From Escherichia phage LH2: a DNA stretch of 64,000 bases. The translations under genes and the position numbers were made by a program. The notes under the pieces are model-generated. The model was not told the DNA's origin, did not search any database, and worked only from the letters and a program-made list of their open reading frames with translations. Positions within the stretch are counted from its first letter, which is position 1; every line of letters begins with the position of its first letter. The DNA lies in the sequence record OQ378934.1. The stretch is one strand, 5' to 3'. Of this stretch, positions 40,189-44,227 are shown piece after piece.

Positions 40189-40437
40189 ATGATTAAACAA
40201 TTACAACACGCTCTTGAACTGCAACGAAACGCATGGAATAATGGTCACGAAAACTATGGCGCATCTATTGATGTTGAAGCCGAAGCTCTTGAAATCCTGC
40301 GTTATTTCAAACATCTGAATCCTGCTCAAACTGCATTAGCCGCTGAGCTTCAGGAAAAAGATGAACTTAAATATGCTAAGCCTCTGGCTTCTGCCGCACG
40401 AAAAGCAGTTCGTCACTTTGTGGTAACACTGAAGTAA
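40189..40437 (+). CDS. rIII: lysis inhibition accessory protein RIII
   Basis: 82-aa ORF (T4 RIII is 82 aa) downstream of gene 31. Confidence 0.8.
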   Translation: MIKQLQHALELQRNAWNNGHENYGASIDVEAEALEILRYFKHLNPAQTALAAELQEKDELKYAKPLASAARKAVRHFVVTLK

Positions 40438-40835
40438 TTTATTGGAGAGTCACTGCCTTAGTGTGAAGTTAAAACGAGGAGCCGTCGAACTGTCTGATTA
40501 ATGATTTGCGAATCATTATAGTTTTAAGACCCCGGCAGTTTTACGGTGTACCTCTTGAATGTTATTCTTATAGCGGCAAGTGCATGCTACCCCGAGGTGA
40601 TGGCTAATCGGGAGTACGCCTCAAGGCCTATATATCCATCAGTATATATCTTATCCTCGAGAAATCGGACCCGGAACCTTTAAGCTAACGGTGTGCAACA
40701 GATAAGAGCTATAAGGTATGATGACGGGTTTATGGTTATCCTGGTCGTTAAATATTCAAAAACCTATGTTCCCCTTGAGGGCTTGCGCAGGCAATGCCAA
40801 TAAGTCCTGCATTTTCATTTAAAAGAGAATTTATA

Positions 40836-41012
40836 ATGGCAAAACAAGCTAAAGCAAAGAAAGCAGTTGAAAAGAAAGTTGGTGATTCTAAACGCGCTGG
40901 TTACAAGCGTGGGTCGAACTCTCGTATCAATCAAACTGTTGAGAAGATCATGCGCCGAGCACGTGCGGTTCTTCGAGATGATGCTTCTCGTTTTGGTAAG
41001 CAGAAAGCATAA
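40836..41012 (+). CDS. small highly basic protein (58 aa)
   Basis: MAKQAKAKKAVEKKVGDSKRAGYKRGSNSRINQTVEKIMRRARAVLRDDASRFGKQKA; strongly Lys/Arg-rich; followed by a strong terminator. Confidence 0.45.
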   Translation: MAKQAKAKKAVEKKVGDSKRAGYKRGSNSRINQTVEKIMRRARAVLRDDASRFGKQKA

Positions 41013-41017
41013 GTTAA

Positions 41018-41046
41018 GGACTCCTTCGGGAGTCCTTTTTTATTTT
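41018..41046 (+). terminator. rho-independent terminator (ggactccttcgggagtcc plus T-run)
   Basis: GC-rich hairpin followed by tttttatttt. Confidence 0.8.
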
Positions 41047-41100
41047 CCAAAGATTGCACAAAGTTGTTTACAGTATGGTTCCTTTGTGATAGTATTATCT
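41041..41100 (+). promoter_or_regulatory. T4-type early promoter (GTTTAC 41066-41071, TAGTAT -10 at 41090-41095)
   Basis: aagttGTTTACagtatggttcctttgtgaTAGTATtatcttacacaaacaaaggag. Confidence 0.6.
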
Positions 41101-41182
41101 TACACAAACAAAGGAGAATAAAATGAAAACGATTAATCGGGTTACGGTCATTGGGCTGATGTTGAAATTATAAGTATTAAAG

Positions 41183-41641
41183 ATGTCTGAATTAGAGATT
41201 AGAAGCAATTTTAGATGGCCATCATGTGCATTAAGCAATTTCGCCCAATGGCCTTTCGTTATGGATGGTATCCAATTTGGAGGTCTCGAAGGATTCCTCC
41301 AAGGATGTAAGGTGAAAAATGTTGAACACCAACGTCGTATATTTGGGTTATCTGGGCTTGCCGCCCAACAAGCTGGAAGGTCTTATGCTAGAGCTCAGGA
41401 CCGTGGCACGTTGTTCTGGCTTGGAACTCCGTTTTCAAGATACTCCTCAGCGTGGAAAGAATTATACACAAATGCATATTTTGAAGCAGCGTTCCAAAAC
41501 AAGGGCTTTCGTGATGCATTACAAGTCTCGAAAGGAAAAGTTTTGAAGCACAGCATGGCTAGTGGTCTAACAAAAGATGATACAATACTAACCGAAGCTG
41601 AATTTATTGATGTGTTAAACCTATTAAGAGACTCTCTATGA
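41183..41641 (+). CDS. NADAR (YbiA/DUF1768)-like protein, putative ADP-ribose-processing enzyme
   Basis: 152-aa ORF with the NADAR-type signature …LSNFAQWPFVMDGIQF…LEGFLQ… that parallels E. coli YbiA (…FSNFAAWPIKVDGKTW…SEHYFQAQKF). Confidence 0.55.
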   Translation: MSELEIRSNFRWPSCALSNFAQWPFVMDGIQFGGLEGFLQGCKVKNVEHQRRIFGLSGLAAQQAGRSYARAQDRGTLFWLGTPFSRYSSAWKELYTNAYFEAAFQNKGFRDALQVSKGKVLKHSMASGLTKDDTILTEAEFIDVLNLLRDSL

Positions 41642-42501
41642 AGCCTACTATTTTAACTGATATTGATGGAGTATGTTTAAGCTGGCAATCAGGTCTTCCT
41701 TATTTTGCTCAGAAATATAATCTTCCATTAGAACATATTTTAAAAATGATCCAAGATGAGAAATTTATTTCTCCGGGTAAACTCTTTAATTGTGATGAAG
41801 AACTTGGCGTCAAGTTAATTGAAAAATACAATCGTTCAGATTTTATTCGTTACTTGTCTCCGTATAAAGATGCCCTGTGTGTAATTAACAAATTAAAAGA
41901 AGATTATAATTTTGTAGCTGTTACAGCATTGGGTGATTCTATTGACGCTCTGTTAAATCGTCAATTTAATTTGAATGCTCTTTTTCCTGGTGCCTTCTCA
42001 GAAGTAATGATGTGTGGTCATGATTCTTCAAAAGAAGAGTTATTCAAAAAGGCAAAAGAGAAATATAACGTAATTTGTTATATTGACGATCTCGCTCACC
42101 ACTGTGACCACGCGAGTGAAATATTGAATGTTCCTGTTTATTGGATGGCTCGAGGAGAGCGTGACAATATTCCAAAAACTGCGCAGCGAGTTTATACATG
42201 GAATGATGTAGAAAATAAGCTTTTTTCGCCGAAGGAAAATAAAGAAAGTTTTGATAGTGAAAAAGCTATAAAAGATGTAATTGAGAAGATGGTTAAAAAC
42301 GATTCTTTTCGTTGGAACACTACCTGGAGAACTCCTGGATTTAATCCGTATAATCCATATTATACACATCCATATAATCCATATTATACACACCCGTATC
42401 ATATGAATCCATTCCATACGTGGAGTTATACTAAGCCTGGTGATGCAGGGTATTTTAATAGATTTACTAGTGGTGATAATATTTTCCAAGGAGCATTCTA
42501 A
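41638..42501 (+). CDS. HAD-superfamily hydrolase-like protein with Pro/Tyr-rich repeat tail (287 aa)
   Basis: N-terminal HAD motif I ILTDIDGV; C-terminus carries tandem PYNPYYTH repeats. Confidence 0.5.
   Translation: MKPTILTDIDGVCLSWQSGLPYFAQKYNLPLEHILKMIQDEKFISPGKLFNCDEELGVKLIEKYNRSDFIRYLSPYKDALCVINKLKEDYNFVAVTALGDSIDALLNRQFNLNALFPGAFSEVMMCGHDSSKEELFKKAKEKYNVICYIDDLAHHCDHASEILNVPVYWMARGERDNIPKTAQRVYTWNDVENKLFSPKENKESFDSEKAIKDVIEKMVKNDSFRWNTTWRTPGFNPYNPYYTHPYNPYYTHPYHMNPFHTWSYTKPGDAGYFNRFTSGDNIFQGAF
42349..42392 (+). repeat. 24-bp tandem duplication (2 copies) encoding the PYNPYYTH repeat
   Basis: tataatccatattatacaca occurs at 42349-42368 and 42373-42392 with a 24-nt period, in frame. Confidence 0.7.
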
Positions 42502-42770
42502 TGTTTGTCGTTCACACTATTTATGAAAATGAAGGTAATACTACACGTGATTACGGTCACGTAAATCAATTTTTTAGATGCAATCCAGAATTCCGAGCTC
42601 AAAAAGACGAACGAATTTTTAAAAAATGTGTAGAGCAAGGTTTCATTTACGTCAAGCACTGGATGCAAGGAAATAAAGTTAGAACTACATATCATAAGTC
42701 TTTGCCTGAGCTTAATGATGAATTGATTTATAATAGAGCTGTAAATCAAACTCTGAAGGATGAACAATGA
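42501..42770 (+). CDS. hypothetical protein (89 aa)
   Basis: ORF immediately upstream of gene 30, overlapping neighbours (ATGA/TAATG-type coupling). Confidence 0.45.
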   Translation: MFVVHTIYENEGNTTRDYGHVNQFFRCNPEFRAQKDERIFKKCVEQGFIYVKHWMQGNKVRTTYHKSLPELNDELIYNRAVNQTLKDEQ

Positions 42771-44227
42771 TTCTTAAAATTCTGAATGAAATAGCATCTA
42801 TTGGATCAACTAAGCAGAAGCAAGCAATTCTTGAAAAGAATAAAGATAATGAATTGCTTAAACGGGTATATCGTCTGACTTATTCTCGTGGGTTACAGTA
42901 TTATATCAAGAAATGGCCTAAACCTGGTATTGCTACCCAGAGTTTTGGAATGCTGACTATTACCGATATGCTTGACTTCATTGAATTCACGTTAGCTACT
43001 CGGAAATTGACCGGAAATGCTGCAATTGAGGAATTGACTGGATATATCACCGATGGTAAAAAGGATGATGTTGAAGTTTTGCGTCGAGTGATGATGCGAG
43101 ACCTTGAATGCGGTGCTTCAGTATCTATTGCAAACAAAGTTTGGCCAGGTTTAATTCCTGAACAACCTCAAATGCTGGCAAGTTCTTATGATGAAAAAGG
43201 CATTAGTAAGAATATCAAGTTTCCAGCTTTTGCACAGTTAAAAGCAGATGGAGCTCGGTGTTTTGCTGAAGTCCGAGGTGATGAATTAGATGATGTTCGT
43301 CTTTTATCACGAGCTGGTAATGAATATCTAGGATTAGATCTTCTTAAGGAAGAGTTAATCAAAATGACTGCTGAAGCCCGCCAGATTCATCCAGAAGGTG
43401 TGTTAATTGACGGCGAATTGGTATACCATGAGCAAGTTGAAAAGGAACCAGAAGGCCTAGATTTTCTTTTTGATGCTCCTGAAATCAGTAAAGCTAAAGA
43501 GTTTGCCGAAGTAGCTGAATCTCGTACTGCTTCTAATGGAATCGCCAATAAATCTTTAAAGGGAACTATTTCAGAAAAAGAAGCCAAATGCATGAAGTTT
43601 CAGGTCTGGGATTATGTTCCGTTGGTAGAAATATACGGTCTTCCGGCGTTTCGTTTAAAATATGATGTACGTTTTTCTAAACTAGAACAAATGACATCAG
43701 GATATAATAAAGTAATTTTAATTGAAAACCAAGTAGTAAATAACCTAGATGAAGCTAAGGTAATTTATAAAAAATATATTGACCAAGGTCTTGAAGGTAT
43801 TATTCTCAAAAATACCGATGGATTGTGGGAAAATGCTCGTTCAAAAAATCTCTATAAATTTAAAGAAGTAATTGATGTTGATTTAAAAATTGTAGGAATT
43901 TATCCTCACCGTAAAGACCCTACTAAAGCAGGTGGATTTATTCTTGAATCAGAGTGTGGAAAAATTAAAGTAAATGCAGGTTCAGGCTTAAAAGATAAAG
44001 CCGGTGTAAAATCACATGAACTTGACCGTACTCGCATTATGGAAAACCAAAATTATTATATTGGAAAAATTCTAGAGTGCGAATGCAACGGCTGGTTAAA
44101 ATCTGATGGCCGCACTGATTACGTTAAATTATTTCTTCCAATTGCGATTCGTTTACGTGAAGATAAAACTAAAGCTAATACATTTGAGGATGTATTTGGT
44201 GATTTTCATGAGGTAACTGGTCTATGA
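42767..44227 (+). CDS. 30: ATP-dependent DNA ligase gp30
   Basis: 486-aa ORF (T4 ligase is 487 aa) beginning MILKILNEIASIGSTKQKQAILEKNKDNELLKRVYRLTY, with adenylation motif KADGAR. Confidence 0.95.
   Translation: MILKILNEIASIGSTKQKQAILEKNKDNELLKRVYRLTYSRGLQYYIKKWPKPGIATQSFGMLTITDMLDFIEFTLATRKLTGNAAIEELTGYITDGKKDDVEVLRRVMMRDLECGASVSIANKVWPGLIPEQPQMLASSYDEKGISKNIKFPAFAQLKADGARCFAEVRGDELDDVRLLSRAGNEYLGLDLLKEELIKMTAEARQIHPEGVLIDGELVYHEQVEKEPEGLDFLFDAPEISKAKEFAEVAESRTASNGIANKSLKGTISEKEAKCMKFQVWDYVPLVEIYGLPAFRLKYDVRFSKLEQMTSGYNKVILIENQVVNNLDEAKVIYKKYIDQGLEGIILKNTDGLWENARSKNLYKFKEVIDVDLKIVGIYPHRKDPTKAGGFILESECGKIKVNAGSGLKDKAGVKSHELDRTRIMENQNYYIGKILECECNGWLKSDGRTDYVKLFLPIAIRLREDKTKANTFEDVFGDFHEVTGL

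Follow-up and report, generated by a model that had tools for sequence, protein, structure and literature searches.

Escherichia phage LH2 (sequence record OQ378934.1) exhibits, upstream of gene 30.1 and the DNA ligase gene, an ORF whose predicted N-terminus resembles hydrolases of the HAD superfamily and whose C-terminus contains a repeated octapeptide, PYNPYYTH. This raises the question of which enzyme the ORF encodes, and whether the repeat is a recent change of any consequence for the protein. We addressed it within a window of 64,000 nucleotides, the whole stretch of DNA analysed, to which all positions refer (Table 1).

Gene identity and genomic context

The ORF 41638-42501 begins with the ATG at 41638 and ends with the TAA at 42499-42501. 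Its product exhibits a full-length match to PHROG 420, the orthologous group of T4 gp30.2 (residues 1-276, E-value = 3.3e-89 in a PHROG profile comparison). The ORF is located upstream of 30.1/DNA ligase, and the T4 gene order 30.3-30.2-30.1-30 is kept in the window with 94.5% DNA identity over the 30.3-to-ligase block. Judged by sequence and position, it is thus the ortholog of T4-phage gene 30.2, a gene already known: T4 30.2 has been catalogued for decades, and a HAD-like label already stands in several GenBank and UniRef entries. Synteny at the locus comprises T4, HY01 and phages of Acinetobacter, Shewanella and Erwinia, and an enzyme of the gp30.2 type, strongly conserved, is found in 1,439 phage records.

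The gene overlaps both neighbours. The adfN stop and the 30.2 start share ATGA (41638-41641), and the 30.2 stop and the 30.1 start share TAATG (42499-42503). The function of AdfN, a NADAR DNA ADP-ribosylglycohydrolase directed against DarTG1, has been described (PMC11825919). The promoter-like site upstream of adfN is a candidate start of the 30.3-30.2-30.1-30 transcription unit. An Rfam search for structured RNA in 40300-42600 returned nothing above threshold. Two further ORFs, one of 149 aa in antisense (42040-42489) and one of 41 aa in the +2 frame (42281-42406), were discarded as genes, both being by-products of the low-complexity repeat with no annotated T4 counterpart. A fusion link between 30.2 and 30.1 was also set aside: the fusion of a 30.2 core with DUF3045 (P0014) lies on a single 1.4-kb read-assembly contig, which is too thin a basis. 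The long C-terminus of the 30.2 homolog in Yersinia phage phiR1-RT exhibits no similarity to 30.1.

Table 1. Coordinates of features at the gene 30.2 locus of phage LH2
Feature	Position	Strand	Basis
Terminator-like hairpin before promoter-like site	41016-41037		Consensus scan
Promoter-like site TTTACA-17-TAGTAT, with TG, upstream of adfN	41067..41095	+	Consensus scan only
adfN (T4 30.3), NADAR DNA ADP-ribosylglycohydrolase, upstream neighbour	41183..41641	+	Pfam PF08010, E 1.1e-67
CDS of 287 aa; T4 gene 30.2 ortholog (HAD-like hydrolase, variable tail)	41638..42501	+	ORF and PHROG 420
HAD Rossmannoid core and C1 cap, residues 1-195; sole family-wide conserved part	41638..42222	+	
HAD motif I, D8-I-D10-G-V12 (nucleophile Asp and Asp+2 general acid/base)	41659..41673	+	
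Helical C1 cap, residues about 14-75, inserted after strand 1	41677..41862	+	AlphaFold helices and conservation
HAD motif II, T96, end of strand 91-96	41923..41925	+	At least 90% conserved
HAD motif III, K132, before helix 133-142	42031..42033	+	Invariant
HAD motif IV, D150-D151 (Mg2+ ligands), end of strand 145-150	42085..42090	+	Invariant
Linker helix from core to tail, residues 202-220	42241..42297	+	AlphaFold H202-220, moderate pLDDT
Aromatic/Pro-rich tail, predicted disordered, residues 223-287	42304..42498	+	pLDDT, composition, pN/pS
First conserved tail motif W230-R-T-P-G234 (W-x-x-P-[GD])	42325..42339	+	Recurs in distant T4-like phage tails
Repeat unit 1, CCGTATAATCCATATTATACACAT, PYNPYYTH, residues 237-244	42346..42369	+	TRF
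Repeat unit 2, CCATATAATCCATATTATACACAC, PYNPYYTH, residues 245-252	42370..42393	+	TRF
Partial third repeat copy, CCGTAT	42394-42399	+	TRF
Residues 268-287, GDAGYFNRFTSGDNIFQGAF, degenerate copy of conserved C-terminal motif	42439..42498	+	Allele and tail alignments
30.1 (DUF3045), downstream neighbour	42501..42770	+	Pfam PF11243, E 5.6e-63
DNA ligase (gene 30), ATGA overlap with 30.1	42767..44227	+	Pfam PF01068; T4 annotation

HAD core and subfamily

The initial annotation had recognised HAD motif I, LTDIDGV, at the N-terminus. This sequence occupies residues 6-12; D8 and D10 do not vary among 55 sequences, and the strand E4-7 just precedes the motif in the AlphaFold model. Motifs I-IV, the sequence features characterizing the phosphatase branch of the superfamily, were all identified. 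Their residues (D8/D10, T96, K132, D150-D151) are conserved over 55 homologs at 34-94% identity, T96 being replaced by Ser in one homolog shown. The model reaches pLDDT >90 for residues 1-195 and exhibits a Rossmannoid alpha/beta core with a cap insertion. The C1 cap is formed by helices 16-26, 32-40, 46-49 and 54-65, with W16, S18 and Y64 invariant and F43 nearly so. Structural matches of the model are confined to HAD enzymes, C1-capped. With the four conserved motifs and a confident model matching HAD enzymes only, the assignment to HAD-like hydrolases is well founded. The core exhibits pN/pS of 0-0.05. The gene is under strong purifying selection, yet it is dispensable on laboratory E. coli K-12: in T4, insertions were obtained at 72 of 72 transposon sites in 30.2, which was classed as non-essential (HIDEN-SEQ preprint 10.1101/2025.11.20.689424, Ext. 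Data Table 6).

The LH2 sequence matched neither Pfam (E-value ≤10) nor NCBIfam, and thus did not reach the threshold of Pfam NT5C (PF06941). Among members of its family, NT5C is the most frequent Pfam match, 13 of the 55 matching it weakly (best E-value = 1.2e-4). A phmmer search against the PDB gave RanGAP alone, which was rejected as a chance match. In a profile search of the PDB the sole sequence-level match was mouse cdN (2jao), and in this marginal alignment (E-value = 0.047) W16, F43 and Y64 of the cap stand opposite Phe, Phe and Tyr of cdN. Aromatic cap residues sandwich the nucleobase in NT5C-type enzymes, and the three cdN residues are reported to stack on the base in the cdN/mdN structures; W16, F43 and Y64 may do likewise. 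The modelled fold leans toward 5'(3')-deoxyribonucleotidases.

The 24-bp duplication and its length alleles

The tail had been described as built from a recent 24-bp tandem duplication at 42349-42392. The duplication is real: its two units are identical at 22 of 24 positions, with both differences synonymous. The interval first given corresponds to the near-exact core, whereas the in-frame units extend over 42346-42393. TRF reports a repeat of period 24 at 42344-42399 (2.3 copies, 90% matches, score 98), the top-scoring tandem repeat of the window, and none of 40 dinucleotide-preserving shuffles reached this score (shuffle maximum 74). A degenerate 9-bp period, TAATCCATA, i.e. x-Pro-Tyr, is nested within it (TRF). 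The duplication contributes only 8 extra residues, and the repeat units together account for 16 of about 65 tail residues; the tail is therefore not built from the duplication.

The comparison of copy number among related phages, which the initial annotation had proposed, revealed alleles with one and with two units. Ten close Tequatrovirus alleles were aligned; in-frame lengths are 277, 278, 279, 282, 284, 287 and 289 aa, and all ten exhibit an identical GDNIFQGAF end despite upstream indels. HY01 and Shfl2 carry the two-copy allele with the identical pair of synonymous differences between copies, and PuKrd-SF5 carries it with one extra substitution in the first copy. The second unit is missing in T4, L001-L004 and Ozark, the repeat region being shorter than in LH2 by 30 bp (T4, Ozark), 27 bp (L003/L004) or 15 bp (L001/L002). 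Neither the ten aligned alleles nor the listed record spans included a three-copy allele. End-to-end matches to the 131-bp repeat region at ≥95% identity came from about 70 GenBank phage records, each of the matches listed spanning exactly 131 bases of the record, and about 60-70 records under many phage names carry the two-copy allele. Since this allele recurs in so many phages and the identical 287-aa protein is present on 115 public contigs, the repeat is neither a sequencing artefact nor private to LH2. With the allele and its pair of synonymous differences shared in this way, the expansion is not recent in this genome. Sister alleles without the second unit are far commoner: of the 349 records that match the repeat region, 237 are in the 90-95% identity band, where the matches listed reach over no more than the first ~45-50% of the query. 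As a length variant, the 24-bp duplication is ordinary and present in dozens of sequenced phages; it is a minor polymorphism.

The C-terminal tail

Beyond the linker helix, of which an equivalent but longer one is seen in the model of a Klebsiella-phage homolog, the tail of LH2 gp30.2 is predicted to be intrinsically disordered, the AlphaFold pLDDT falling from 57-59 at residues 221-240 to 36-43 at 251-287. The last 65 residues contain 13.8% Y, 12.3% P, 12.3% T, 10.8% F, 10.8% N and 6.2% H, compared with 5.1, 4.1, 2.6, 4.6, 6.7 and 2.6%, respectively, in the core. The earlier label of a Pro/Tyr/His-rich tail is appropriate for Pro and Tyr, but His accounts for only 4 of 65 residues; Tyr/Pro/Thr/Phe/Asn-rich is a better description. 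The tail exhibits pN/pS of 0.2-0.4, against ≤0.05 in the core. The protein or nucleic-acid contacts that the initial annotation ascribed to such tails are putative here.

Two motifs, W-x-x-P-G and a GxxEYLxxQPT type, recur in tails of Klebsiella, Enterobacter and other T4-like phages and are conserved within class A tails. The intact C-terminal motif reads GGIEYLYNRPTCGDNIFQGAF in T4 and GTGIEYLNRQPTA... in other genera; the LH2 allele has AGYF-NRF against the intact IEYLYNRP. A variable Pro/aromatic spacer sits between the two motifs, and the duplication lengthens this spacer only. On the sequence comparisons, the tail is an old appendage, older than the duplication. In most clades it is missing or of another kind: among 100 cluster representatives, 38 are tail-less, and the remainder exhibit several unrelated tail classes. 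When 5.8 billion proteins were searched with a profile built from 14 class-A tails, no other protein type carrying it was identified; the search returned four short fragments of 64-110 aa only, the closest being 70-98% identical to the query tail. Docking of the tail onto its own core was rejected, as residues 224-289 of the Klebsiella-phage homolog, which has an intact GTGIEYLNRQPTA and was modelled from a class-A-only alignment, still exhibit pLDDT <50.

Proposed function

We consider it fairly probable that gp30.2 is a C1-capped HAD phosphomonoesterase leaning toward nucleotides, with a disordered docking tail and a near-neutral duplication in it. Of this, the fold, the motifs, the orthology, the polymorphism and the dispensability of the gene are shown by the data, whereas catalytic activity, a nucleotide substrate, partner binding and neutrality we infer. 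The protein would be an accessory Mg2+-dependent enzyme, in which D8 would be the nucleophile acting on the phosphate of a small substrate, giving an aspartyl-phosphate intermediate, and D10 would act as general acid/base, with the phosphoryl group held by T96 and K132 and Mg2+ by D150/D151. As the active site is closed over by the cap, a small metabolite is the most likely substrate, our best guess being a (deoxy)nucleoside monophosphate, as for the NT5C-type 5'(3')-deoxyribonucleotidases. A dNMP phosphatase seems counter-productive for a phage that recycles host dNMPs. A literature search returned no paper on gp30.2 function and no biochemical data for any gp30.2 homolog.

Through the two short conserved motifs of its C-terminal ~65 residues, the enzyme probably docks to a partner specific to the lineage, an idea weakened for LH2 by the degenerate C-terminal motif of its allele. 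The (x-Pro-Tyr)n micro-repeat forms the variable spacer between them, and the duplication is best explained as a product of in-frame slippage or unequal recombination inside this degenerate micro-repeat. It belongs to a set of at least seven length alleles circulating in Tequatroviruses; near-neutrality is probable.

Alternative explanations

The enzyme might instead be a generic subfamily-I HAD phosphatase with a non-nucleotide substrate, such as a sugar phosphate, phosphoglycolate or an ADP-ribose-derived phosphate. We hold this possible but doubtful, given that cdN is the only sequence-level match in the PDB and the three cap aromatics align with it, that NT5C is the most frequent Pfam match and that NT5C-type superpositions give the lowest rmsd. 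Dehalogenases lack the Asp+2 residue, the presence of which excludes dehalogenase chemistry by established HAD enzymology; L-2-haloacid dehalogenase was thus rejected, Asp+2 (D10) being present and invariant in gp30.2 and the DD pair of motif IV being present as well. The genomic setting evokes a PNKP-like repair module, a 3'-phosphatase acting on polynucleotide ends and readying nicks for the ligase two genes downstream. A 30.2 homolog lies directly 5' of the DNA ligase gene, with or without 30.1, in Escherichia, Acinetobacter, Shewanella and Erwinia T4-like phages, gp30.2 weakly matches a polynucleotide kinase PHROG (phrog_415, E-value = 0.0012), and PNKP phosphatase domains are among the distant viral fold matches. 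The adjacency is weak evidence because T4-like genomes are broadly syntenic, and these phages already encode PseT/PNKP nearby. By the general HAD rule (Burroughs et al. 2006; Allen and Dunaway-Mariano), capped enzymes act on small molecules and macromolecule-directed ones, e.g. PNKP, are capless (C0). The model of gp30.2 lacks the open active site of the C0 type, exhibiting a confident helical insertion of ~60 residues after strand 1, which makes a polynucleotide-end phosphatase quite improbable. Still harder to believe is a catalytically dead HAD-fold scaffold with its function in the tail. No activity has been reported for the family and the tail has conserved linear motifs, but the catalytic residues are all invariant or nearly so over 34-94% identity, the very low pN/pS of the core counts for a live enzyme, and 38% of the clusters keep the core without a tail.

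As for the duplication, the doubled PYNPYYTH might be a doubled binding epitope or a retuned spacer serving a host- or phage-specific partner, spread by selection and recombination. The allele is common to phages of many names with E. coli, Shigella and Yersinia as hosts, the pN/pS of the tail is below 1, and the tail alleles have a mosaic look (in Ozark a short repeat is joined to the GDAGYF end, and both duplications are present in Shfl2), which suggests exchange by recombination. However, conservation along the tail alignment is lowest where the duplicated block is situated, alleles without the second unit predominate as counted above, three copies were not seen in the alleles aligned or the spans listed, the tail is dispensed with in the tail-less clusters, and T4 30.2 knock-outs exhibit no phenotype under the conditions inspected; we regard an adaptive duplication as unlikely. 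A role beside AdfN was also considered. AdfN-T4 has been inferred to be fully active only in Tevenvirinae infections, and an additional phage factor has been postulated (PMC11825919); gp30.2 could be this T-even factor, stabilising or localising AdfN against DarTG1 through its tail, in keeping with the ATGA overlap and with the adjacency of the pair in Acinetobacter phages also. Published transposon data argue against gp30.2 as this missing helper: in a T4 library exposed to DarTG1, 30.3 insertions disappeared (log2FC -7.25, adjusted p 0) whereas those in 30.2 were unaffected (log2FC -0.12, p 0.61; HIDEN-SEQ Data S6). Moreover, no 30.3 is recognisable in Shewanella phage Thanatos-1 or Erwinia phage Cronus, both of which have 30.2. 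On these insertion data and the incomplete co-occurrence the cofactor role is rejected, being largely refuted and by far too improbable to retain. A further reading, to which we give little credence, is a conditionally important, tail-tethered 5'-nucleotidase with a nucleotide-sanitising or counter-defence role, removing particular (modified) dNMPs set free as the phage breaks down host DNA. These would include danger signals of nucleotide-sensing defence systems, e.g. m6-dAMP for PUA-Cal-HAD (PMC12871103). Strong purifying selection on a gene dispensable on laboratory E. coli K-12 would be compatible with such a role. If the counter-defence reading were true, the clade-specific tails, the duplicated one included, would track different docking partners or hosts.

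Returning to the capped, nucleotide-leaning phosphomonoesterase, the locus carries little weight as a discovery: the gene is known, the protein is already public and the repeat is a minor polymorphism. The gain is a cleaner annotation, namely that of a HAD phosphatase with a C1 cap and the full set of catalytic residues, closest to NT5C nucleotidases, whose disordered clade-variable tail bears two conserved linear motifs.

Comparison with known systems

The cdN/mdN and bacterial NT5C-like enzymes (PF06941; 2jao, 2i7d, 1mh9, 3bwv) exhibit, like gp30.2, a HAD core with a four-helix C1 cap. Common to both are motif I DxDGVL, followed by an aromatic residue at +8 and SGL, and the DD of motif IV. 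These structures provide the best PDB sequence-profile match and the lowest-rmsd superpositions on the gp30.2 model, with only 13-21% identity. The strongly conserved LNRQFNLNALFPGAF block, in which R, two N's, L, F, P, A and F are invariant, is specific to the gp30.2 family relative to NT5C, and the solved NT5C-type chains matched, at 167-200 residues, are all too short to carry a tail. Subfamily-I HAD hydrolases (B. subtilis YfnB 3i76, phosphoglycolate phosphatases, beta-PGM-like enzymes, L-2-haloacid dehalogenases) are 11-19% identical to gp30.2 and gave no sequence-level match in PDB searches. The HAD domain of T4 PseT/polynucleotide kinase-phosphatase is likewise a phage-encoded phosphatase of the same genomic neighbourhood, and its similarity to gp30.2 is that of the weak phrog_415 match; PNKP phosphatase domains have no cap and are directed at polynucleotide ends, whereas gp30.2 has a C1 cap.

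T4 gp30.2 (NP_049815, 278 aa, annotated "hypothetical protein") occupies the same slot between 30.3/adfN and 30.1/ligase. Its HAD core is near-identical to that of LH2, with 4 non-synonymous differences in 195 codons, and the two proteins agree in tail architecture and in their last 9 residues. The T4 protein has a single NPYNPYHPYQTHPF stretch without the 24-bp duplication, and its C-terminal motif is intact (GGIEYLYNRPT), in contrast to GDAGYFNRFT in LH2.

Gene identity and context

The window is a segment of a T4-like (Tequatrovirus) genome, and the ORF that the initial annotation delimited at 41638-42501 (287 aa) was confirmed to the exact base. It matches PHROG 420 ("unknown function", E-value = 3.3 × 10-89). 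It is flanked by a Pfam PF08010 protein (gp30.3) on one side and a DUF3045 protein (gp30.1) on the other, then DNA ligase, in the T4 order 30.3-30.2-30.1-30-alt.1-alt, with 94.5% DNA identity to T4 across the 30.3-to-ligase block. Because of this match, gene order and identity, sequence comparison identifies the ORF as the ortholog of T4 gene 30.2 (NP_049815, 278 aa, "hypothetical protein"). Public databases already contain this gene in this position and the exact protein (the 287-aa sequence on 115 public contigs, named phages among them), and "HAD-like" annotations exist there too. Homologs occur in 1,439 of 50,697 GenBank phage records (Escherichia, Klebsiella, Aeromonas, Acinetobacter, Vibrio and other T4-like phages). 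Almost all carry the annotation "hypothetical", and a few are called "HAD-like hydrolase" or "5'-3' deoxyribonucleotidase".

Features of the gp30.2 region (window coordinates)
Feature	Position	Strand	Remark
Terminator-like hairpin	41016-41037		just before promoter-like site
Promoter-like site	41067-41095	+	directly after hairpin
30.3/30.2 stop/start overlap	41638-41641	+	ATGA
gp30.2 ORF	41638-42501	+	ATG at 41638, TAA at 42499-42501, 287 aa
Repeat unit 1	42346-42369	+	PYNPYYTH, residues 237-244
Repeat unit 2	42370-42393	+	PYNPYYTH, residues 245-252
Partial third copy	directly after unit 2		CCGTAT
Indel spot 1			x-Pro-Tyr micro-repeat
Indel spot 2			3-bp (GTA) indel
Indel spot 3			independent 6-bp TAGTGG duplication
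30.2/30.1 stop/start overlap	42499-42503	+	TAATG
30.1/DNA ligase stop/start overlap	42767-42770	+	ATGA

The overlapping stop and start codons that chain adfN (30.3), 30.2, 30.1 and the DNA ligase gene suggest translational coupling over the whole block. Since a promoter-like site also follows the hairpin, 30.3-30.2-30.1-30 plausibly form one transcription and translation unit. Compared with T4 and the related phage HY01, LH2 misses about 1.43 kb with genes 30.8, 30.7, 30.6, 30.5 and most of 30.4; at the junction (41138-41143) the alignment passes from 41138 to 41143 while T4 and HY01 skip the block. This loss places 30.9 and the terminator- and promoter-like sites directly upstream of adfN. 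A stretch of higher GC content (about 155-278 bp; 40440-40717), located between rIII and 30.9, is missing from HY01 and partly from T4; 178 phage records contain all of it. Its sole ORF encodes 45 aa from a GTG start, and Rfam gave nothing above the gathering score for it. Two further ORFs, a 149-aa antisense one (42040-42489, -) and a 41-aa out-of-frame one (42281-42406, +; IHIIHIHIIH...), lie across the 3' half of 30.2. Both arise from the AT-rich repeat as low-complexity by-products, and the T4 annotation has no counterpart of either.

Some database entries are irregular. The 90%-identity cluster of 30.2 proteins also includes 152-aa AdfN/gp30.3 proteins, a clustering oddity that probably stems from gene calls fused or read through at the ATGA overlap. 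In PP355090.1 (Escherichia phage 232Ecol030PP), 863 of the 864 bases of the gene are matched and tblastn returns an otherwise 100%-identical protein in two pieces, likely reflecting a 1-bp frameshift or a sequencing error in the deposit. A protein (P0014) of one short assembly contig (Logan SRR21148734, 1378 bp; gene 234-1142) joins a tail-less 30.2 core to a DUF3045 (30.1) domain (Pfam E-value = 8.3 × 10-15); it could be a true gene fusion or result from a frameshift artefact.

HAD fold and candidate substrate

Residues 6-12 (LTDIDGV) provide HAD motif I (D8-x-D10-x-V12), as initially noted, and we regard the HAD fold and motifs as practically certain. The subfamily leans to the NT5C-type 5'(3')-deoxyribonucleotidases, on evidence that is not decisive. 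The only sequence-profile match in the PDB is mouse cdN (2jao, E-value = 0.047), a marginal alignment that sets DGVLxxWQSGL against DGVLADFESGL and W16, F43 and Y64 opposite Phe, Phe and Tyr of cdN. Among the top Foldseek matches, cdN, mdN and 3bwv structures have the lowest rmsd; the top target TM-score is that of 3bwv (0.70), with cdN/mdN at 0.61-0.66. No Pfam model draws more weak matches from the family than NT5C (13 of 55 members, best E-value = 1.2 × 10-4), and, beyond the family, most named viral fold neighbours carry the label "5' nucleotidase". The predicted capped fold argues against a role as DNA-end phosphatase. Most probably, gp30.2 is a dispensable HAD phosphomonoesterase that depends on Mg2+ and has a small phosphorylated metabolite as its substrate. 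That it is an active phosphatase is likely; the foremost candidate substrate, a nucleoside or deoxynucleoside monophosphate, has about an even chance of being correct. A literature search on gp30.2 function found no paper.

Relation to AdfN

DNA ligase is a more constant neighbour of 30.2 than 30.3 is; given the broad synteny of T4-like genomes, however, this adjacency carries little weight. The upstream gene 30.3 encodes AdfN, a NADAR DNA ADP-ribosylglycohydrolase countering DarTG1, inferred by its discoverers to need another T-even factor for full activity (PMC11825919). As the 30.2 start overlaps the adfN stop, permitting translational coupling, gp30.2 was an obvious candidate for this factor. 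T4 HIDEN-SEQ transposon data (bioRxiv 10.1101/2025.11.20.689424) argue against such a helper role: 30.2, hit at 72 of 72 sites, is non-essential (Extended Data Table 6), and DarTG1 challenge leaves insertions in it unaffected (log2FC -0.12, p = 0.61) while those in 30.3 vanish (log2FC -7.25). In addition, Thanatos-1 of Shewanella and Cronus of Erwinia carry 30.2 with no recognisable 30.3. Insertions in T4 30.4, a gene that LH2 naturally lacks for the most part, are also depleted under the challenge (log2FC -1.79, adjusted p = 0.014; Data S6), probably a polar effect on adfN.

The 24-bp duplication and its alleles

The initial annotation described a 24-bp tandem duplication that looked like recent slipped-strand expansion. 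The duplication was confirmed as two in-frame units, identical at 22 of 24 positions, both differences being synonymous. Tandem Repeats Finder reports it at 42344-42399 (period 24 bp, 2.3 copies, 90% matches, score 98), the top-scoring tandem repeat of the 64-kb window; 40 shuffles of the window that preserved dinucleotides yielded at most 74. Beneath the repeat region lies a degenerate 9-bp period (TAATCCATA, i.e. x-Pro-Tyr), within which slippage or unequal exchange generated the duplication.

A sequencing artefact is contradicted by the copy-number comparison among related phages. HY01 and Shfl2 carry the two-copy allele with the same two synonymous inter-copy differences as LH2, and in the two-copy allele of PuKrd-SF5 the first copy has one extra substitution. 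End-to-end matches to the 131-bp repeat region at ≥95% identity come from about 70 records, the matches listed spanning exactly 131 bases; at the protein level, about 61 records reach an identity of at least 95%. The shared allele therefore shows the duplication to be real. Slippage (or unequal exchange) stands as its origin; recency does not, the same allele being found across so many records that the duplication must predate the divergence of a sizeable clade.

Ten closely related alleles encode proteins of 277, 278, 279, 282, 284, 287 and 289 aa, differing by in-frame indels at three spots (Table), and all ten end in the same nine residues (GDNIFQGAF). Downstream of the 24-bp repeat region, IMG/VR UViG_3300010279_000005 (L002) and Shigella phage Shfl2 (L018) have the TAGTGG duplication, which adds Ser-Gly; in Shfl2 it is combined with the 24-bp duplication in a 289-aa protein. 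No three-copy allele was seen among the ten aligned alleles or the record spans listed. The alleles look mosaic, suggesting recombination among them, and the 24-bp duplication looks like an ordinary length variant, one of several.

Tail architecture

Family-wide conservation ends near residue 195. Among 100 cluster representatives, 38 have no tail; the others divide into unrelated classes: 21 (class A, T4 included) carry a C-terminal motif of the GIEYLxxQPT type, 12 terminate in L[RK]AYY, about 10 in ..LLN or LLGM, and 17 have tails of other types. The last 65 residues of gp30.2 are rich in Tyr, Pro, Thr, Phe and Asn, so that the initial description of a Pro/Tyr/His-rich tail holds for Pro and Tyr, not for His (4 of 65). 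AlphaFold predicts a disordered tail, with pLDDT <50 over most of its length and 57-59 at residues 221-240; the tail of a Klebsiella-phage homolog whose motif is intact, modelled from a class-A-only alignment, is also mostly <50. A pN/pS of 0.2-0.4 over the tail of the close alleles indicates a region that is relaxed yet still constrained.

The predicted disordered tail, with two short conserved motifs, would dock gp30.2 to a lineage-specific partner, a putative function that we consider at most about as likely as not. The duplication adds eight residues to the spacer between these motifs, and is likely near neutral. The tail polymorphism is a minor descriptive addition for this widespread, well-conserved T4-like enzyme. 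Aligned class-A tails of distant genera share the plan W-x-x-P-[GD], a variable Pro/aromatic spacer, then (G)TGIEYLxxQPTA. The duplicated PYNPYYTH sits in that spacer, and the terminal motif is degenerate in LH2 (GDAGYF-NRFT) compared with GGIEYLYNRPT in T4.
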